52,015 nt of DNA from a candidate division WWE3 bacterium (GTDB taxonomy: Bacteria; Patescibacteriota; 4484-211; GCA-002791395). The notes under the pieces were generated by a model, which worked only from the letters and a program-made list of their open reading frames with translations, searched no databases and was not told where the DNA came from. The position numbers and the translations under genes are program-made. Below, piece by piece: positions 4,120 through 47,709 of this stretch. How positions within the stretch are numbered: position 1 is the first letter of the stretch; each line of letters begins with the position of its first letter. The stretch spans positions 1 to 52,015 of the forward strand of contig JAGQKZ010000002.1 of the NCBI GenBank assembly GCA_020429745.1. The letters run 5' to 3'.

Positions 4120-4453
4120 CAATCGTTCAAACCAGCAAAGAGTGCGTGGCTATGTAGTCGCAAGGCTTATGGAGGAGATGCGGGCTAGGCAGATTCCACC
4201 AACAGAGATCCAGCAGATGGCAAAAAAGTCTTTGGAGCTTACAGAGGGGATCGACGACGACGAAGGGTTGCTCGAAGCCTTGCAGGAGCTTTCTGGTAAA
4301 TACCCTCTATTGGAGGTCGCGTATTTGAAGGAACTTGCCTACGTCGACGATGTGAATCGTGCGCAGGTCGCTACGCAGGTGAGTGAGCTTTTACAGCAAG
4401 GTAAACTCGAAGAGGCTGGCTCCTTAGCCGCCTCACATACACATAAGGAATAA
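4103..4453 (+). CDS. hypothetical protein (helical, acidic)
   Basis: 116-aa ORF. GGAGGT lies 5 nt upstream of the ATG, and the ORF overlaps the hisS 3' end by 17 nt (operon-internal). No recognisable motif. Confidence 0.5.
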   Translation: MDTQTNNRSNQQRVRGYVVARLMEEMRARQIPPTEIQQMAKKSLELTEGIDDDEGLLEALQELSGKYPLLEVAYLKELAYVDDVNRAQVATQVSELLQQGKLEEAGSLAASHTHKE

Positions 4454-40704: not shown

Positions 40705-41238
40705 ATGTCCGGGCACAGCAAATGGCACAAGGTAAAGCATCAAAAAGCTGCCAAAGACCCAAAAAAGAGCAAGGCTTTTAGTCTGCACGCTAGGTTGATT
40801 CAGGTCGCTGTTAAGTCCGGCGGTCCTGATCCTGATATGAACCCGGCCTTGCGTAAGGCGATCGACGATGCCAAGGCGATTAATCTTCCCAAGGAGAATA
40901 TCCAGCGTGCGATAAATAAAGGTGCCGGCATCGGTAATGAAGGGGCGATGGAGACCTTTACACTTGAAGGTTACGGGCCCGGCGGTGTTGCGGTTATGCT
41001 TACGGTTACGACCGATAATCGCAATCGCACGGTGGCTGAGGTGCGTAAAGCGTTTAAAGATAGTGGTGGAAGTCTTGGAGAACCCGGAAGTGCCGCGTTT
41101 GTGTTTGGGTCAGATCCTGACAATCCTCAATATAAGACGCCGATCTCGGACGCACATCAACTGCAACAGTTCGAAGACCTGGTTGATGAGCTAGACAGCA
41201 ACGAGGACGTCGACGATCTAGTTCACAATCTGGGTTAG
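40705..41238 (+). CDS. YebC/PmpR-family protein, shortened form (177 aa)
   Basis: MSGHSKWHKVKHQKAAKD...NPALRKAIDDAK...LEGYGPGGVAVML...DNRNRTVAEVR is the canonical YebC N-terminus and core. About 60-70 residues of the usual C-terminal subdomain are missing. Confidence 0.88.
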   Translation: MSGHSKWHKVKHQKAAKDPKKSKAFSLHARLIQVAVKSGGPDPDMNPALRKAIDDAKAINLPKENIQRAINKGAGIGNEGAMETFTLEGYGPGGVAVMLTVTTDNRNRTVAEVRKAFKDSGGSLGEPGSAAFVFGSDPDNPQYKTPISDAHQLQQFEDLVDELDSNEDVDDLVHNLG

Positions 41239-41439: not shown

Positions 41440-41667
41440 ATGCATATCGACGATATTTACGAGGAATACCCCGATAAGTGGGTGCTCGTTAGGGTTACAA
41501 AAGAGGATGAGATTGGTGAGGTTGTGGAAGGAGAGGTGCTTTTTGTAAGTGACGATCGAGATGAGATGTATAAGGCGATCGCGAATGTTGAAGGCGGGTC
41601 AACGGTTGCAACCTTATACACAGGCGAAATTCTTAGCGAAGGTCAGTCGTTTGCATTCAAGTCATGA
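41440..41667 (+). CDS. small protein (75 aa), DUF5678-like, coupled to the aspartic protease gene
   Basis: YPDKWVLVRV...GEVVEGEVLFVSDDRDEMYKAI resembles the small partner proteins found upstream of retropepsin-like genes. ATG lies 8 nt after TATAAA 41426-41431. Its stop overlaps the next ATG (ATGA). Confidence 0.6.
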   Translation: MHIDDIYEEYPDKWVLVRVTKEDEIGEVVEGEVLFVSDDRDEMYKAIANVEGGSTVATLYTGEILSEGQSFAFKS

Positions 41668-42062
41668 CAGAACAGGCGATCTTAAAAACGTTCGACCCAA
41701 GGGCCGGAATTATCCTGGTTACTGCTACAATCACGAGTCATATCGAGATGAAAGCACGACTCGTCTTTGATACTGGGGCAACGTACTGTATGTTGCCGTG
41801 GTGGCTGATTAATAACCTGCAGATAAAGATTAACCCCAAAAACGTTACGCAAACCACAACGGCTAGCTCAGTCGAGACGTCACCGATTGTGAAACTCCCG
41901 GCTTTGGAGGTTTTAAATGAAAAGGTGGAGAACGTGACGTGTTTGGTGCGTGACCTTCCGCCGATGAGCAACGTCGACGGACTATTGGGACTAAGCTTCT
42001 TAAAATACTTTAATGTTAATATCAATTTTGAGGAAGGTGAGCTCTCCTTGGATCGATATTAG
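41664..42062 (+). CDS. retropepsin-like clan AA aspartic protease
   Basis: Catalytic LVFDTGATYCMLP (D-T-G) and GLLGLSFLKYF motifs. The 132-aa length matches single-lobe retropepsins that act as dimers. Confidence 0.8.
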   Translation: MTEQAILKTFDPRAGIILVTATITSHIEMKARLVFDTGATYCMLPWWLINNLQIKINPKNVTQTTTASSVETSPIVKLPALEVLNEKVENVTCLVRDLPPMSNVDGLLGLSFLKYFNVNINFEEGELSLDRY

Positions 42063-42076
42063 GTCGCTTGGTTTTA

Positions 42077-42105
42077 TTTGACACAGACATCACAAAGCTG
42101 TATAT
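42077..42105 (+). promoter_or_regulatory. promoter-like element of leader unit 1
   Basis: TTGACA 42077-42082, a 17-nt spacer, then TATATT 42100-42105. Confidence 0.5.
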
Positions 42106-42116
42106 TCCTTGACACA

Positions 42117-42188
42117 ATGCAAGGATTAACCTCACCTAACGCAGTGTCGTTTACGTCCCGCTATTTGGCGGGCTGCGCTGTTTTGTAA
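42117..42188 (+). CDS. 23-codon leader ORF 1 (MQGLTSPNAVSFTSRYLAGCAVL)
   Basis: ATG lies 11 nt after the -10 box. The ORF spans hairpin A (42157-42172) and stops at 42186-42188. Its geometry is identical to the ORF at 42825-42896. Confidence 0.35.
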   Translation: MQGLTSPNAVSFTSRYLAGCAVL

Positions 42189-42213
42189 ACCCTAGCTTTT
42201 ACAGGACCCAACA

Positions 42214-42236
42214 ACCCGCTAAACGGCGGGTTTTTT
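42214..42236 (+). terminator. intrinsic terminator of leader unit 1
   Basis: ACCCGCT-AAAC-GGCGGGT stem-loop followed by T6. Confidence 0.75.
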
Positions 42237-42377
42237 AGTTTTGGATTTTGCTAGTACAAAACGAGCACATTCACAAAGGTCTAATTCAAGTAGACAGGGT
42301 GTTAAACCCTAAACCCCAAAGATCGTGCACCTCTTGCACGAGAGATTTGTGTTTGCGAGAAACGAAAGGAGTAACCA

Positions 42378-42734
42378 ATGTTTCTCAACGTTCGACCCGA
42401 AGACGGTCTGGCGGTGGAGCTCGTTGCTGCGATGGGAGCTAGAATGATAGATCCCGGGCGGTACGAGCTGGATGGCGGCGGTGATCACGAGATCGCCGTT
42501 GTGTCGTTCACACAAGGCGCTATGCCGAAAGGAGTACTGCATCCAAGGAACAAGCCTACGCACTACCGCATCCTAAGGCGTAAGGGACCGCTGGATAGTC
42601 ACGTCAGTCCTCAGCTTCAGGGTGAAGTTGTCCTCGTGCTCAACCGAGATCAGGCCGAGTGGTTACTTGGGCAGGTGAAAAATATCCGCGGGCAGATCAG
42701 GATCGGCCAGACGGGAAAGATGTATACCCGTTAG
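42378..42734 (+). CDS. hypothetical protein (118 aa)
   Basis: SD AAAGGAG 6 nt upstream of the ATG. No motif recognised. A 5' UTR hairpin TCGTGCA/TGCACGA lies at about 42323-42341. Confidence 0.55.
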   Translation: MFLNVRPEDGLAVELVAAMGARMIDPGRYELDGGGDHEIAVVSFTQGAMPKGVLHPRNKPTHYRILRRKGPLDSHVSPQLQGEVVLVLNRDQAEWLLGQVKNIRGQIRIGQTGKMYTR

Positions 42735-42749
42735 TCTGGGACAAGGTGA

Positions 42750-42777
42750 GAGGGGAGGAGTTCATTCTCCTTCCCTC
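42750..42777 (+). terminator. stem-loop after the 118-aa ORF (no U tract)
   Basis: An 11-bp stem GAGGGGAGGAG / CTCCTTCCCTC (one G-U pair) with loop TTCATT. Confidence 0.4.
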
Positions 42778-42786
42778 AATTGGTAG

Positions 42787-42815
42787 TTGACATACTATCG
42801 GATGGGTGCTATTTT
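42787..42815 (+). promoter_or_regulatory. promoter-like element of leader unit 2
   Basis: TTGACA 42787-42792, a 17-nt spacer ending in TGC, then TATTTT 42810-42815. Confidence 0.45.
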
Positions 42816-42824
42816 TATTTCACA

Positions 42825-42896
42825 ATGTTGAATGTAAATCTAAATTACTGGCATCGCTATACAACCCTCCAAACGGCGGGCGTTAGTGCTGTGTAG
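42825..42896 (+). CDS. 23-codon leader ORF 2 (MLNVNLNYWHRYTTLQTAGVSAV)
   Basis: ATG lies 9 nt after the -10 box. The ORF spans hairpin A (42865-42880) and stops at 42894-42896. Confidence 0.35.
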   Translation: MLNVNLNYWHRYTTLQTAGVSAV

Positions 42897-42923
42897 TAAT
42901 AAGATTATTCACATAAACTGGTA

Positions 42924-42947
42924 ACCCGCCAAACGGCGGGTTTTTTT
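42924..42947 (+). terminator. intrinsic terminator of leader unit 2
   Basis: ACCCGCC-AAAC-GGCGGGT perfect 7-bp stem followed by T7. Confidence 0.75.
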
Positions 42948-43055
42948 ATGGCACATTAATAAACTGTTACTTACAGGAGAAGGCGCTTAATTACTTTCTC
43001 CAGGCTATCCATGTCAACGAATACAAGTTAACTAGTTGCTAAAAGGAGGCAAGCT

Positions 43056-44387
43056 ATGTATCACTCATTTGGAGACGCTGGCGATCAGCCATGGAAAAGA
43101 GGGTCAAGTGATGTTAGGGGTTCTGGTCAGCTTCGTGCTATTGCAACACCGAGGATCCATTGGAGTATAGACGCGCTGCAAAGTACCGAGCGGGCGATGG
43201 TCTCCTCCTTGCTTGAAAAAGTCAGGGGGGCAGGAGTTAATACTCACGGGGCAGCCGTTGCTGAGAGTTGTATCCTCCCGATAACGCAACAAAACCCCGG
43301 AACATACATAGTTGAATACGGTAGTAGTTCGGCTGTGGCGTGGGTACGCGAGGATATCGCCTTATTGAGGGCAGTCTCTATGTTGCCACGAGCAGTGGGG
43401 GTAGTTACTCTAGCTAAAGGAGGGCTCTCCCTCGCTGATTCTTTAACCGACACTCAAGCATCTTTTGGGCTGCTTGATGGGGCGGGAGACCTTAGGTCTC
43501 TTTTTACTACCGAACAGCTGTATCGACCTGCCGGGCAGGTTCCATTACCAAGGTGGTCTGATTTCCGGTCAATGTATCGGTCATTTGGCTTTTCTGCCTC
43601 GATGGAAATAATTAAGGCCTGCTTTGATGTAACTGCTGCTAGAAGCTGGTTCGACTTTGTTGGAGTGTATCGCTATGTGACGGGTCAGTTTGTGCGGTCT
43701 CTACTTGCAATCCCGAACGAATGGCGGGTTGTCAGCGGGGAGGATCTGTTTCTTTCGGCAGATGAGATAGCACAAGCGACTGTGACTGATTTTGCGAAGA
43801 CGGTGAGAGATGCTGCGCGTATCGCCTCATGGCAGAGAGCTCCCCGCGTACTCAACTTCCCATGCCAGAACAATGTGAGCCCTTGCGATCATTGGCACTA
43901 CATCAATGCTCGTGGACGGCAAGTCGGGTATAGTCCCGGACATGGTGCAGATGTTCCAAAAAAGTGTCGTGTCAGATCACCACAACAGACAACTGTCGGT
44001 CAGGCGATAACCTATGGCGCCGGGCTGTCTGGCATGGCACTCTACTATGCTATGGGTGTTCTTGGTAACTTGAGTGACCATGTGATCCTTGCAAGGGACT
44101 ACTCGAAGGGACAGGTATACCGTGTTCTTGAATCGTTTCTTCGTGATAAATCAAACCGCTTGCATGTGATTCCATATGGTGCTACATACCTTTATGCAAG
44201 AGGGTCTGATCCAGCAAAGAGTCTAGACTCGCTCGTTTTACTGGAAGTGCTTCTACGCTCTGGTAAGCCCGCAGATATTGTTCGTCAGATATTTGCAGGA
44301 TTTCCGGTTCCTTACAAGTCGCCTCACGAGGTATTTGTAGAGCTTGATTTGGATGGCACAGTAACAGTTTCACATCGGGAGGTGTGA
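43056..44387 (+). CDS. hypothetical protein (443 aa) with a C-terminal Rossmann-like GxGxxG signature
   Basis: SD AAAAGGAGG lies upstream. AITYGAGLSG (residues ~317-326), then HVILARD about 20 residues later, suggests a beta-alpha-beta dinucleotide/SAM-binding unit. The rest is unrecognisable. Confidence 0.7.
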   Translation: MYHSFGDAGDQPWKRGSSDVRGSGQLRAIATPRIHWSIDALQSTERAMVSSLLEKVRGAGVNTHGAAVAESCILPITQQNPGTYIVEYGSSSAVAWVREDIALLRAVSMLPRAVGVVTLAKGGLSLADSLTDTQASFGLLDGAGDLRSLFTTEQLYRPAGQVPLPRWSDFRSMYRSFGFSASMEIIKACFDVTAARSWFDFVGVYRYVTGQFVRSLLAIPNEWRVVSGEDLFLSADEIAQATVTDFAKTVRDAARIASWQRAPRVLNFPCQNNVSPCDHWHYINARGRQVGYSPGHGADVPKKCRVRSPQQTTVGQAITYGAGLSGMALYYAMGVLGNLSDHVILARDYSKGQVYRVLESFLRDKSNRLHVIPYGATYLYARGSDPAKSLDSLVLLEVLLRSGKPADIVRQIFAGFPVPYKSPHEVFVELDLDGTVTVSHREV

Positions 44388-44394
44388 AAAAAGA

Positions 44395-45192
44395 ATGGAG
44401 CTGAGTGCTGGAATATATTGTTTTTACAACGGTTATTCACACGCACCCAGCTCCGTCTTCATAACTATGAATAAAGAAGATAAAAATAAAACTAAATATA
44501 TTTTGGGGATTACGGCACACCCAGACGATCACATATCGTTCGCTGGGACTGTGATAAAGCTGGGCAAAATGGGTTACTCGTATGCCGAAATCGTATTGTC
44601 TGACGCTGAAGAGTCAGGTATGGTTAAAGGTGGTCAACGGCTTGTTCGTGTTGACAAAAGAGAACATCTCGACGTCAGGTGGAATACAGAGTTTGCCGAA
44701 GCCGCCCGTATTTTAAACATTAAGTCGCTGTACCGCTTGGGGTTGCCCAATATCGGTATTGAGTACTCGAAAAATACGGCGCTAACAATCATGCAAATAG
44801 TGCGAAGTGTCCGGCCGGAGATTGCATTTGTCCACCACCCAAGTGACTATATGAGCGATCATATTCAAGCAGCGTACGTTAGCTTGGAAGCAATTAAACT
44901 AGCAGCGTATTCATTCCGTTTAGATCTGGGTAATAACTGGAGAACGCCTGTGGTGTTACATTTTGAGGGTGTGAATCCAATTGACGCTCAGGTGTTGGTT
45001 GATATCTCTGCCGAGTTTGAAGAAAAACTAAAAGTACTTCACGCTTATGGATCACAATTTGGTGATAGGTCATTCCAATTGACCGAAGGTGCCGCAAAGT
45101 ATAGGGGGTACGCAAGGCGAACAGCCTTAGCAGAGGCTTTCGAGATCCCGAAGAACTATCCGATGTGGGAGATTGGAGGTGCACTGAAATGA
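44395..45192 (+). CDS. PIG-L/LmbE-family N-acetylglucosaminyl deacetylase
   Basis: LGITAHPDDHISFAG (AHPDD metal motif) and HHPSDYMSDH. SD GGGAGGTG lies before ATG 44395 (alternative ATG at 44467). Confidence 0.85.
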   Translation: MELSAGIYCFYNGYSHAPSSVFITMNKEDKNKTKYILGITAHPDDHISFAGTVIKLGKMGYSYAEIVLSDAEESGMVKGGQRLVRVDKREHLDVRWNTEFAEAARILNIKSLYRLGLPNIGIEYSKNTALTIMQIVRSVRPEIAFVHHPSDYMSDHIQAAYVSLEAIKLAAYSFRLDLGNNWRTPVVLHFEGVNPIDAQVLVDISAEFEEKLKVLHAYGSQFGDRSFQLTEGAAKYRGYARRTALAEAFEIPKNYPMWEIGGALK

Positions 45193-46277
45193 ATATTTTA
45201 TTCGCCCATGACTACCCACCTATTGAAGGTGGCGGTCTTGAGGTAAACACCTTTGCAGTAGCGTCTGAGTTAACTGCTAGGGGGAACGCGGTGACGATCA
45301 TTACATCAAGGAGAAGCTCTGAGACATTCATGGGTGGTGTCCCAGCTGAACAGAACGGGGTTCAGATTAGAATCGTTAAAGACCTTCAGGAAGTTGCTGG
45401 TTATGTGCAGGCCGCAGATGTTATTTGTCCGCAAATGACGTTTTCTCTTCGAGACTGCGGGATTGAAGCGATCCGCCAAGCGTTGGCGATGGGCAAGGTG
45501 GTCATTGTTTCACAACACACGGCAACCAATCATATTCCCTACTCAAACTTACAACGGTTGTCTCTTTCACAGCGCAATGTCAGGCTTGAAGAGTATCGAG
45601 ACTTACTCAATAACGAAGGGGTAGCGGTAGTGGCTCCATCAATAATGCTCGCGGATGATTTAACCAGTTTTGGGGTTGTCAAGGATATCACCATAATCCC
45701 GATCGGGATCGAGCAGCCAAATACAGAAAAGTCTGACAAAAAGTATGATCTGGTAACAGTAGGAGAGGTTTCATACTTGAAAGGCCTCAACTATCTCTGC
45801 GATTCGATTCGGCTATTAAAAAATGAGGGAATGGTCGTGACGGCAGCTGTAGCGGGAGGTGGGTCGGAGTTTGAACTGGTGAAGGCGCTCGCATCAAGCC
45901 TCGAAATTGCAGATCAAATTGATTTTCTAGGCTATATACCGCATAAACGTGTAAATAACGTGCTGGCACAGTCAAGGGTTATGGTACACCCTTCACTATC
46001 TGAGGTCATGCCGCTTGTTATCATTGAAGCTATGCTTATGAACGTGCCTGTCGTCGCGAGCAATGTTGGGTTTTGTGGCTCGTTGTTGAAACAATCCGGG
46101 GGTGGGGTAGTGTTTGAACGTGGTGATGTGGCGGGTCTTGCTGCAAGTATTAAGATATTCCTTAGTAACGAGAGGCTATGTACTGCGATGGGGCAGTCCG
46201 GTAAAGTTTATTGTAAAGAGAGGTACACGATCGATGTTCAAGTGGATCGATTGGTAAAAATGATCGAATCGCGCTAA
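45189..46277 (+). CDS. family 4 (GT-B) glycosyltransferase
   Basis: MNILFAHDYPPIEGGGLE N-terminus and C-terminal EX7E region HPSLSEVMPLVIIEAM. The ATG overlaps the deacetylase stop (ATGA). Confidence 0.9.
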   Translation: MNILFAHDYPPIEGGGLEVNTFAVASELTARGNAVTIITSRRSSETFMGGVPAEQNGVQIRIVKDLQEVAGYVQAADVICPQMTFSLRDCGIEAIRQALAMGKVVIVSQHTATNHIPYSNLQRLSLSQRNVRLEEYRDLLNNEGVAVVAPSIMLADDLTSFGVVKDITIIPIGIEQPNTEKSDKKYDLVTVGEVSYLKGLNYLCDSIRLLKNEGMVVTAAVAGGGSEFELVKALASSLEIADQIDFLGYIPHKRVNNVLAQSRVMVHPSLSEVMPLVIIEAMLMNVPVVASNVGFCGSLLKQSGGGVVFERGDVAGLAASIKIFLSNERLCTAMGQSGKVYCKERYTIDVQVDRLVKMIESR

Positions 46278-46353
46278 ACGGAGTCATCTTGAGTTCGGAA
46301 CATACTTCGACCGCACATACAGGGCAATTAGGTCAATTCGAAGTTTGAACAGT

Positions 46354-47709
46354 CTAGAACGGTAAGATGCTTACGATCTTGTAGGCGAAACCGTTTGCCG
46401 CTTTGTTTATAGCGTTGAGCAAAACGCTTTTTGTCGAGCGCCAGTGGTCTAACTTAGCACCAAGCGTGAGTGAGCTGACGTATGCTTGAACGTCGTCTTC
46501 CGATCGATTAGCGTACTTTGCGTAGTCGACAAGGAATCGATTGGTAGCATTGACGATTCTTTGCGGATCGCCAGTTTTAAACGCAATCTCGTACTCACCG
46601 AAGAAGTCCGACATCGACGTAAGTGTGGAAGAGAGACTTTCAGACAAACCTTCCGACCCTTCCGGCTTTGGGAGTTTTGCAAACTGAGCCTGGTAAGTGC
46701 TTAACTCGTCACTGATCTCGCCGATTGTTTTTACAAATATGTCAAGGTCGTTTGTCTCAAATGCCTGATCTAAAGCCACTGTCATGTCGTCAAGGCGTTT
46801 GGTTATTACAATAGAAAACTCCTCGAAACCGACCACAACGTCTACATCGTCGACAAACTCTCGTCCGGCGGCAGAAGCAGCTTTGATTTTTGCCAACAAG
46901 TCCTCATTTATCGTCGAAGTTGCCGCCATACCCTCGATCTTTTCGACAGCCTCCTGTTTTTCAATAGCAAGATCGGAATATGATTTGGCGGTGTAGACCA
47001 GCTGAGATTGTGCCTCGACCTCAGCATCGTAAGCTAGGGTGTTAGATCCTGCCACGTCGCCGAACTGTCCAGCAGATTCATCGCCCACCATATTTTTCGA
47101 GTCTATGTTAGCAGTAAATGCTAGTCGTTGTGCCTGCTCCTGTATGGTGCCGATCTGTCTCTCCTCCTGCACATCTTGGTAGTAGTTGACCATGTTATTG
47201 ACGTGTTTCAGCGTGTCTGAAAAAACCTGCTCGGCCTCGTTTAAACTCAGCTCAGTTGAGTCGGCGATGCCGACAACGTCTTTCGTGGGAACAACGGCTA
47301 CGAAGTAGACAACGATCAATAGAGCGGCAATAACTGTTGTAACGCTAAGTCCGGCTAATACCATGCGCATCGTCTTACCGTCAGAGGGCATTTGGTCAGT
47401 GTCTGTTGGTATGCGGAGTCTGTTGTCGAGACTTAGACTATTAGGCACGGCTGGGGCTTGTTGAGTTGAGATCTTTGGCTGTGGTGTAGGCGTGTCTCCA
47501 AGTGCAGCAGCGCTACTTAGTGCAGATACGTTGGGTGATGGCTTTGCTTTTTGAGTGTTTACCTGATTTGGTGATTTGGGTGTGATGACGGTTTCAGGGT
47601 GTGCGGTCTCTTTCTGTGGAACGACCGAACTTATGAACTTGCCTGAGCACGCTGCGCACATTAAGTTATTAACCTTCTCAGTTTCTTTACCGCAGCTAAT
47701 GCACTTCAT
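46354..47709 (-). CDS. hypothetical membrane-anchored protein with an N-terminal zinc ribbon
   Basis: CISCGKETEKVNNLMCAAC, a Pro/Thr/Ser-rich linker, a TM helix (LAGLSVTTVIAALLIVVYFVAVV), and a ~300-aa helical ectodomain. Confidence 0.7.
   Translation of the reverse strand: MKCISCGKETEKVNNLMCAACSGKFISSVVPQKETAHPETVITPKSPNQVNTQKAKPSPNVSALSSAAALGDTPTPQPKISTQQAPAVPNSLSLDNRLRIPTDTDQMPSDGKTMRMVLAGLSVTTVIAALLIVVYFVAVVPTKDVVGIADSTELSLNEAEQVFSDTLKHVNNMVNYYQDVQEERQIGTIQEQAQRLAFTANIDSKNMVGDESAGQFGDVAGSNTLAYDAEVEAQSQLVYTAKSYSDLAIEKQEAVEKIEGMAATSTINEDLLAKIKAASAAGREFVDDVDVVVGFEEFSIVITKRLDDMTVALDQAFETNDLDIFVKTIGEISDELSTYQAQFAKLPKPEGSEGLSESLSSTLTSMSDFFGEYEIAFKTGDPQRIVNATNRFLVDYAKYANRSEDDVQAYVSSLTLGAKLDHWRSTKSVLLNAINKAANGFAYKIVSILPF

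Follow-up and report, generated by a model that had tools for sequence, protein, structure and literature searches.

Why should two short transcription units of the same design lie one behind the other in the genome of a candidate division WWE3 bacterium, each ending in a terminator and each followed by protein genes? The question is raised by a 52,015-nt stretch of DNA (GenBank assembly GCA_020429745.1, contig JAGQKZ010000002.1, positions 1 to 52,015 of the forward strand; hereafter the window), in which a first-pass annotation had noted two units, each with a promoter, a 23-codon open reading frame (ORF), a hairpin and an intrinsic terminator in a common geometry. We confirmed this arrangement from the sequence and by pattern scans. 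Unit 1 precedes an orphan gene for a 118-aa protein, and unit 2 precedes an operon that begins with the gene of a rare 443-aa protein. We propose, from sequence comparison, that the two units attenuate transcription by the ribosome-mediated, leader-peptide mechanism of the trp and phe leaders, acting on leaderless mRNA, a reading to which we give a probability of roughly two in three.

Anatomy of the two units

The promoter of unit 1 spans 42078-42106 (forward strand, as are all features below unless stated otherwise) and has TTGACA at 42078-42083, a 17-nt spacer and TATATT at 42101-42106, an 11/12 match to the consensus. The first-pass annotation had placed it 1 nt too early, at 42077-42105, but its coordinates for unit 2 (42787-42815) were correct; there, TTGACA (42787-42792) and a TG-extended TATTTT (42810-42815) are again separated by 17 nt and match at 10 of 12 positions. 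The ATG of the leader ORF lies 9-10 nt downstream of the -10 box (10 nt in unit 1), and transcription is predicted to start at about 42112-42114 in unit 1 and 42821-42823 in unit 2. Because the ATG is so near the -10 box and no Shine-Dalgarno (SD) sequence was found upstream of either ORF, we read both as leaderless mRNAs. The 23-codon ORF of unit 1 (42117-42188) encodes MQGLTSPNAVSFTSRYLAGCAVL and ends with TAA at 42186-42188, and that of unit 2 (42825-42896), also of 23 codons, encodes MLNVNLNYWHRYTTLQTAGVSAV and ends with TAG at 42894-42896.

Both arms of a first hairpin, hairpin A, are contained in the leader ORF. It reads CCCGCT-ATTT-GGCGGG at 42157-42172 in unit 1 (-9.7 kcal/mol) and CCCTCC-AAAC-GGCGGG, with one C/U mismatch, at 42865-42880 in unit 2 (-6.9 kcal/mol). 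The GGCGGG arm occupies nt 51-56 of the ORF and the stop codon nt 70-72 in both units. The intrinsic terminator, hairpin B, lies between the leader ORF and the downstream gene and has an 8-bp stem in both units; in unit 1 (42213-42236) it consists of AACCCGCT-AAAC-GGCGGGTT at 42213-42232 followed by T6, and in unit 2 (42923-42947) of AACCCGCC-AAAC-GGCGGGTT at 42923-42942 followed by T7. The distance of 41-43 nt, which had been counted from the stop codon, holds between hairpins A and B, but from the stop codon to hairpin B it is 25-27 nt. We refer to the arms of hairpin A as A5' and A3' (segments 1 and 2) and to those of the terminator as B5' and B3' (segments 3 and 4). When the two units were aligned, 74% of the columns were identical, mainly in the promoter, CACAATG, GGCGGGC and the terminator.

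These elements stand out from the surrounding DNA. About nine promoter matches of at least 10/12 were found on both strands of the 52-kb window, two of which are the unit promoters. In the 10 kb scanned, the unit promoters are the best on the forward strand (consensus scan) and the unit terminators are the two best terminator-like sites. No other terminator in the window is preceded, at 20-75 nt, by a repeat of its 3' arm. Dinucleotide shuffles rarely gave an ORF that starts with ATG and stops 0-25 nt beyond the A3' arm (1-4% per unit, about 1% for unit 1), and the z-scores of the folds against shuffles were -3.1 and -4.5 for the two units.

The presumed target of read-through from unit 1 is the 118-aa gene (42378-42734), which has the SD sequence AAAGGAG and follows the terminator after a 141-nt spacer; that of unit 2 is the operon at 43056-46277. 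A consensus scan found no promoter-like site between terminator and downstream gene in either the 141-nt or the 108-nt spacer, in agreement with the earlier remark that neither downstream gene shows a convincing independent promoter.

Competing pairings and a proposed mechanism

The A3' arm had been predicted to pair with B5' and so to exclude the terminator. The calculated energies agree with this: in unit 1 the A3' arm (42167-42172) can alternatively pair with the terminator 5' arm at 42213-42220 (-13.3 kcal/mol), and in unit 2 the A3' arm (42875-42880) can do so with its own terminator 5' arm (-14.2 kcal/mol). The corresponding values for A5':A3' and B5':B3' are -12.7 and -13.9 kcal/mol in unit 1 and -8.4 and -16.2 kcal/mol in unit 2.

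We collected relatives via contigs that encode homologues of the 443-aa protein and by DNA-pattern scans, and compared ten units including the window pair (related loci carry L numbers). In 10/10 units the A3':B5' duplex (-12 to -18 kcal/mol) was more stable than A5':A3' (-7 to -13 kcal/mol), and it was comparable to the terminator duplex B5':B3' (-12 to -17 kcal/mol). Hairpin A was weak in all ten (-5 to -10 kcal/mol) and mostly mismatched, and the terminator was strong (-9 to -15 kcal/mol). For transcripts that end just before the B3' arm, the minimum free energy (MFE) structure was the A3':B5' antiterminator in eight of the ten units, including unit 1. The exceptions were unit 2 and L020, in which the antiterminator was 1-3 kcal/mol worse than the MFE structure (3 kcal/mol in unit 2); the competing fold involves the 5' half of the ORF and would be opened by a ribosome. 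The full-length MFE structure of unit 1 and others is a nested helix of 1:4 and 2:3. A ribosome-masking simulation was compatible with the mechanism proposed below: the antiterminator was obtained with the ribosome stalled as far as codon 13, and with the ribosome at codons 15-23 segment 2 was masked. This simulation cannot single out the aromatic codons described below, because 2:3 beats 1:2 at equilibrium anyway, and for the same reason any role of hairpin A would be a kinetic one.

We propose the following mechanism. The strong sigma-70-type promoter would start transcription 3-5 nt before the AUG, and a ribosome would load at the 5' end. The ORF would present segment 1 (nt 41-46) and segment 2 (GGCGGG, nt 51-56), and segment 3 (CCCGCY) and segment 4 (GGCGGG plus the U-tract) would form the terminator about 40 nt further on. 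After full translation, the ribosome at the stop codon, 13 nt past segment 2, would cover segment 2, so that 3:4 forms and an RNA of about 120-125 nt is released; termination would thus be the default state. When the ORF is not translated at all, 1:2 (or the nested 1:4 and 2:3) would form, place a GC stem before the U-tract and again lead to termination. A ribosome that stalls at aromatic or His codons, such as Tyr-Trp-His-Arg-Tyr in unit 2, would cover segment 1 and leave segment 2 free to pair with the emerging segment 3. The terminator would then not form, and the polymerase would read through into the 118-aa gene (unit 1) or the operon (unit 2).

Related units, a T-box in a sister lineage and the candidate signal

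Homologous units were found in related genomes. L001, L002, L003 and L143 have one unit between a protease gene and the 442-aa operon. In L012, two units (L012a and L012b) lie on either side of a 118-aa gene homologue, reproducing the window arrangement, with a glycosyltransferase gene of family GT2 25 nt after the second. L011 has a protease gene, a unit and, 17 nt past the U-tract, a gene for an AstE/AspA-type hydrolase, and L017 has a unit in a differing context, with the downstream gene 40 nt past the U-tract. In L020 (WWE3 GW2011_GWB1_41_6) the unit precedes the gene of a distant 443-aa homologue (HHalign, 93%) followed by PIG-L and GT4 genes. The unit of L010, which encodes the leader peptide MWFCFYHMNRPSSGGIAFI, stands before an orthologous 436-aa gene and is diverged: its arms are GGGAGG (A3'), CCCTCCC (B5') and GGAGGG (B3'), a concerted change in three segments. 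The operon orthologous to that of the window follows a unit in L001, L020 and L010.

A further unit was found in L065, a Roizmanbacteria metagenome-assembled genome, with a like promoter-to-ATG spacing and again leaderless. It encodes MSKKPFHRFYFYFYFTASGGVESYV, which begins with MSKKPFHRFYFYFYF and contains FYFYFYF, and its U-tract directly abuts (0 nt) the start codon of a DAHP synthase gene (Pfam DAHP_synth_1, 36.7 bits). By its sequence, the L065 unit is a textbook Phe/Tyr attenuator. Since the downstream genes begin only 0 (L065), 17 (L011), 25 (L012b) and 40 nt (L017) past the U-tract, they would need read-through.

The full architecture recurs in at least seven independent contexts from two classes of the candidate phyla radiation (CPR). 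This recurrence of promoter, ATG spacing, ORF length, weak hairpin A with strong hairpin B, and stop distance makes it extremely improbable that no regulation is involved and that the units are spurious transcription units or duplicated terminators left behind by cassette insertion, a notion that would fit the variable island described below and a pair of tandem identical terminator hairpins after a gene in the Collierbacteria contig L053. The gene end in L053 is followed, on the reverse strand at about 4190-4275, by a pair of hairpins whose arms are identical (CCCGCC-TTAC-GGCGGG), and duplicated identical terminator hairpins thus also exist outside leader contexts in CPR. A scan of genomes with a strict DNA pattern of the unit gave no match, and a scan of viral contigs picked up unrelated terminators and coding ends but no member of the family. 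Two AT-rich gammaproteobacterial leaders (L095 and L112, with '..HH..QAG..') were considered as family members and rejected, as their promoter is distant and their 5' untranslated region (UTR) long.

The geometry of the ORF is kept throughout the family. In eight of the ten units, 36-40 nt separate the -35 box from the ATG, and the ATG lies 7-11 nt past the -10 box; the 5' UTR would therefore be only about 0-5 nt long, which is the basis of the leaderless reading. The ORFs of the family have no SD sequence. The leader ORF is present in the window units and in 9/10 family members, with 19-27 codons, and the stop codon is 13-22 nt past the A3' arm in all ten. In L012a and L012b the common nucleotides GGCGGGTGCCTTTTGCGTAT are read in differing frames, with the stop at the usual distance in both, which suggests that here the length of the ORF and the RNA matter, not the peptide tail.

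This frame change also bears on whether the units are genes for functional 23-27-aa peptides, either signals or precursors modified by neighbouring enzymes, with a leaky terminator setting the peptide-to-enzyme ratio, as in many operons for ribosomally synthesized and post-translationally modified peptides. A common aromatic core, an '...AGV.AV'-like tail and the glycosyltransferase genes (GT4, GT2) downstream of several units would fit such a role. However, the L012b tail past the A3' arm is in another frame with its nucleotides kept, 'AG' is merely what GCGGG of the hairpin arm encodes, and the aromatic positions shuffle without a fixed motif. In addition, L011 has a premature stop, L065 shows the same design with a clear Phe/Tyr run before DAHP synthase, and the targets are unrelated, such as the 118-aa orphan and the AstE/AspA-type hydrolase. 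We consider a peptide gene improbable.

If the units are attenuators, control codons are expected before hairpin A. In unit 2, the putative control codons Tyr-Trp-His-Arg-Tyr are codons 8-12 (42846-42860), 5-19 nt before segment 1, and in unit 1 the candidates are Phe12 (42150-42152) and Tyr16 (42162-42164). Across the family, 36 of the 96 codons that make up the 12 positions upstream of the A3' arm specify Phe, Trp, Tyr or His, versus 10% in the proteins of the window (nominal P ~6e-13, with shared ancestry left uncorrected), and one Trp codon is present in seven of the eight WWE3-type units. The clusters differ by copy (YWHRY, YWHYYF, WYWHYY, FWPRYCMF, FRWFYRH, YWY, WFCFYH), and this shuffling of aromatic positions points to control codons rather than a peptide motif. 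The first-pass annotation had argued for selection on RNA geometry and not on the peptide; the part on RNA stands, but the enrichment across the family suggests that codon content is under selection as well, as expected of control codons.

The candidate signal is suggested by a sister lineage (L004-L009 and L138; WWE3 CG_4_9_14_3_um_filter_41_6), in which the orthologous 398-aa/PIG-L/GT4 operon is preceded by a T-box and not by a unit. The T-box lies at 5655-5950 of L004 (RF00230, 46.5 bits, E 3.4e-9) and has a canonical antiterminator bulge, UGGCACC, followed by a long terminator with U7; it scores under the Rfam gathering threshold (46.5 versus 93) because its stem I is short. The loop of its first hairpin reads GAA-UGG-A. 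The operon is followed by trpS (TIGR00233, 211 bits versus a cutoff of 177), with no second T-box between them, and the tRNA-Trp gene in the L004 locus has G73, matching the bulge UGGC. The variable base of the T-box bulge must pair with the discriminator base of the tRNA, and of the tRNAs for Tyr, Phe, His and Trp, G73 is known only from bacterial tRNA-Trp. The operon of this lineage probably responds to uncharged tRNA, most likely tRNA-Trp. We also considered GGC or GCC as a canonical stem-I specifier and rejected them, since Gly and Ala tRNAs are not known to have the G73 that the UGGC bulge needs. The L004 element may be an atypical CPR T-box of a kind missed by the Rfam thresholds.

In the window, L001, L020 and L010, the mini-ORF before this operon has one Trp codon, set in an aromatic cluster. 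A T-box and trpS in one lineage and a Trp-bearing mini-ORF in four loci lead us to regard the units as sensors of tRNA charging, with Trp as the prime candidate, and this exchange of T-box and mini-ORF before an orthologous operon is our strongest argument for amino-acid sensing. The most likely signal would be scarce charged tRNA-Trp, or possibly aromatic and His tRNAs generally. That Trp or aromatic amino acids are what is sensed remains a tentative assignment, a little short of an even bet.

The position of the T-box also speaks to the view that the units are stand-alone genes for trans-acting small RNAs of about 120-125 nt, placed there incidentally or derived from attenuators like rnTrpL of Sinorhizobium. 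A very strong promoter and a very strong terminator should make the short RNA abundant, the units have a patchy, cassette-like distribution, their folds are more stable than shuffles, and attenuator RNAs with trans functions are documented (PMC6614838). On the other hand, copies of very different sequence retain, even after a frame change, an ORF with an ATG start, a constant length and a constant stop position, which speaks against a purely non-coding role; downstream genes lie 0-25 nt past the U-tract in L065, L011 and L012b; and a T-box occupies the equivalent position in the sister lineage. We regard stand-alone small RNA genes as improbable, and a trans role as a possible second function beside attenuation.

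Several points weigh against our reading of the units as attenuators. In most units the antiterminator is the favoured fold at equilibrium with no ribosome present, and any stall in codons 1-13 gives a like result, so that the model needs a kinetic argument. The start sites and leaderless initiation are deduced from promoter geometry alone, and in L011 codon 3 is an in-frame TAA. The arms are invariant in the eight close copies, in which RNAalifold found no compensatory pair, so that L010, as the one diverged copy, carries the whole case for the covariation that a common RNA structure had been expected to show. A non-consensus promoter could lie in the 108-141-nt spacers of the window. The targets (the 118-aa orphan and the 443-aa/PIG-L/GT4 operon) are not amino-acid biosynthesis genes, and their only link to Trp is an indirect one, the T-box and trpS around the orthologous L004 operon; that T-box is sub-threshold, and its Trp specifier is our own reading of an atypical short stem I. 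The control codons form a mixed aromatic cluster with a single Trp and no homopolymeric run, and unit 1 is the weaker case because it has no Trp codon, only Phe12 and Tyr16. Finally, the AAAC loop of the terminator is conserved, for which the attenuator model gives no reason.

The strict conservation of the arms and of this loop would fit a sequence-specific binder, and the ORFs have no SD sequence. Both facts could be explained by a terminator/antiterminator switch run by an RNA-binding protein or a small ligand, to which the ORF is irrelevant. No conserved aptamer-like structure or sequence was seen outside the arms, there is no Rfam match, no gene for a candidate binder is linked to the units, and the start, length and stop position of the ORF are conserved, all of which make such a switch highly improbable. 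The ribosome-mediated 1:2/2:3/3:4 logic, which the first-pass annotation had put forward, is instead supported by the recurrence of the units, the concerted change in L010, the L065 unit before DAHP synthase and the replacement by a T-box.

Two observations were made on the surroundings of the family members. A conserved motif RGCACWTT followed by an A-rich stretch (..AAAAAtACTG) occurs 3-35 nt past the U-tract in five units, with sites at 42264-42271 and 42950-42957 in the window and at about 5891-5898 in L001, and also in L012a, L143 and L017; this suggests that a conserved module extends past the terminator. The region from the protease gene to sufS (42063-47709 in the window) is a variable island, which is empty in L018, L140, L144 and L151 and in the window consists of attenuator-headed cassettes. 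Near-identical leaders (L001 versus L012a/L143) are joined to differing downstream genes.

Presumed target genes, known systems and possible biological meaning

The gene order at the locus is tRNA-Arg, a short YebC, a 75-aa gene with a clan-AA aspartic protease (41440-42062), unit 1, the 118-aa orphan, unit 2 and the operon, beyond which a 451-aa gene of unknown function on the opposite strand and SufS follow. Both the nearest relatives of the locus proteins and the contigs in synteny carry annotations as candidate division WWE3 or as other Patescibacteria, which makes a WWE3-like CPR host most likely. The operon encodes the 443-aa protein (43056-44387), a PIG-L/BshB-like deacetylase (44395-45192) and a GT4 glycosyltransferase (45165-46277), all on the forward strand.

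Apart from one near-identical copy, no homologue of the 118-aa protein was found among 5.8 billion proteins; the homologue downstream of a unit in L012 is diverged. An 11-bp hairpin without a U-tract, GAGAGGGGAGGAG-TTCA-TTCTCCTTCCCTC, lies directly 3' of the 118-aa gene at 42746-42777, and L012 has an analogous hairpin 3' of its homologue. The 443-aa family has 33 representatives among 1.84 billion clustered proteins, with an invariant Cys cluster and the motifs GAGLSG and ARDYSKG. The protein has no Pfam, NCBIfam, PDB-sequence or PADLOC match, and its AlphaFold2 model (predicted local distance difference test score, 69) gave only insignificant Foldseek matches resembling class-I aminoacyl-tRNA synthetases. 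A search of the GTDB genomes for close relatives of the 443-aa protein returned no locus, and a profile of the protein returned one locus, identical to L004; a six-sequence profile of the family was too diverged for use. Because the 443-aa family is very rare and has no assignable fold, the Trp link is a usable lead to its function. The 443-aa gene with its BshB-like and BshA-like neighbours resembles the layout of low-molecular-weight thiol pathways.

The 75-aa gene and the clan-AA protease gene adjoin YebC and SufS in many WWE3-like contigs, and the protease matches the PADLOC candidate defence family PDC-M08B (31 bits). We considered whether the unit belongs to this upstream pair and rejected this, as no unit follows most of the homologous pairs (L018, L139-L153). 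YebC/PmpR (40705-41238) has 177 aa versus a model of 245 residues, and since it has 178-188 aa in all related contigs, it is a lineage-specific short form, not a truncation. No trpS is present in the window. On the reverse strand at 51808-51697, upstream of an ABC-F-type gene with two ABC domains (51634-50189), a promoter that matches the consensus at all 12 positions (TTGACA-16-TATAAT) has a terminator-like hairpin (CCAAG...CTTGG plus T5) about 75 nt beyond it. ABC-F-type genes are often under ribosome-dependent attenuation. The region at 51808-51697 has no ATG-started leader ORF and no Rfam match, and its fold is not significant.

The statement that the units belong to no known leader or riboswitch family held when the whole window was scanned with Rfam at the gathering threshold and the region at E up to 10: only sub-threshold leader-like matches, caused by the terminator, were found. 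The best was Trp_leader (RF00513), with 24.3 bits for unit 2 and 18.5 for unit 1 versus a threshold of 41. Seven related loci gave no Rfam match at gathering, and the T-box model RF00230 had no match in the window and one only at L004. A generic pattern, in which the terminator 3' arm is repeated 35-65 nt upstream, retrieved many proteobacterial Ile, His, Trp and Leu leaders, for example MKIIKGIIIIIRR before leuA, MNRIIISKGIIIIRQQQAG, ..HHVHHHH.. and ..CTWRNWFWRS.., which makes the repeated 3' arm inside a mini-ORF a hallmark of true attenuators.

The units share with the proteobacterial trpL, pheL, hisL and ilv/leu/thr leaders a short ORF over segments 1 and 2, mutually exclusive helices (1:2, 2:3 and 3:4) in which segment 4 resembles segment 2, an intrinsic terminator before the regulated genes, and candidate control codons just 5' of segment 1. 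They differ in that the window ORFs have no SD sequence and start 3-5 nt from the predicted 5' end, that the ORF extends 13-22 nt past segment 2, and that the cluster mixes Tyr, Trp, His and Phe with one Trp; moreover, the targets are non-biosynthetic, the host belongs to CPR, and the Rfam leader models stay far under threshold. Leaderless leader ORFs are known from Actinobacteria, in Corynebacterium ilvBNC (PMC11857589, PMC10272879) and as the poly-Cys leaderless small ORFs of mycobacteria (bioRxiv 10.1101/834739). These actinobacterial sensory small ORFs resemble the window units, as we read them, in leaderless translation, in codon-specific stalling that remodels the downstream RNA, and in that several operons can share a signal (a 'ribulon'). 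The mycobacterial Cys elements are reported to unmask a ribosome-binding site, which is translational control, whereas the output of the window units is an intrinsic terminator; phylum, amino acid and targets differ as well. The T-box (RF00230) of L004 has an equivalent position and an equal output, read-through of a terminator on uncharged tRNA, but a T-box binds the tRNA directly and the units, as proposed, would sense it via the translating ribosome. The Trp attenuator rnTrpL/peTrpL of Sinorhizobium meliloti has extra functions for its released RNA and leader peptide (PMC6614838, PMC7298713), and like rnTrpL, the window units would release an abundant RNA of about 120 nt.

A search of full-text literature found no paper joining attenuation or T-box terms with CPR or Patescibacteria. 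The units appear to form a new attenuator family outside the Rfam leader families, with a mechanism known from the trp and phe leaders. The family is unusual in its predicted leaderless translation, in a cluster that mixes aromatic codons and has a single Trp, in cassette-like targets outside biosynthesis, and in its interchange with a T-box.

Next to nothing is known of how Patescibacteria/CPR regulate their genes. If our reading is true, these ultrasmall host-dependent bacteria would monitor the supply of charged tRNA via stalling on leaderless mini-ORFs, and this signal would switch on accessory glyco-enzyme cassettes instead of biosynthetic genes. The units are also compact natural promoter-switch modules, which could serve as expression tools for CPR. 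A further and doubtful extension is that a tRNA-Trp-responsive regulon exists in WWE3-like CPR, made up of the attenuators found in the window, L001, L020 and L010 and of the Trp-type T-box and trpS of the L004 lineage. Its core may be the rare 443-aa protein (with the Cys cluster and DYSKG), the BshB/MshB-like deacetylase and the BshA/MshA-like GT4 enzyme. Such a regulon, if true, would point to a new Trp-linked pathway, for example for an amino-acid-sugar conjugate or for a scavenging or surface-modification response to Trp starvation, that runs in host-dependent organisms thought to be without amino-acid biosynthesis and is switched by stalling on leaderless sensory ORFs.

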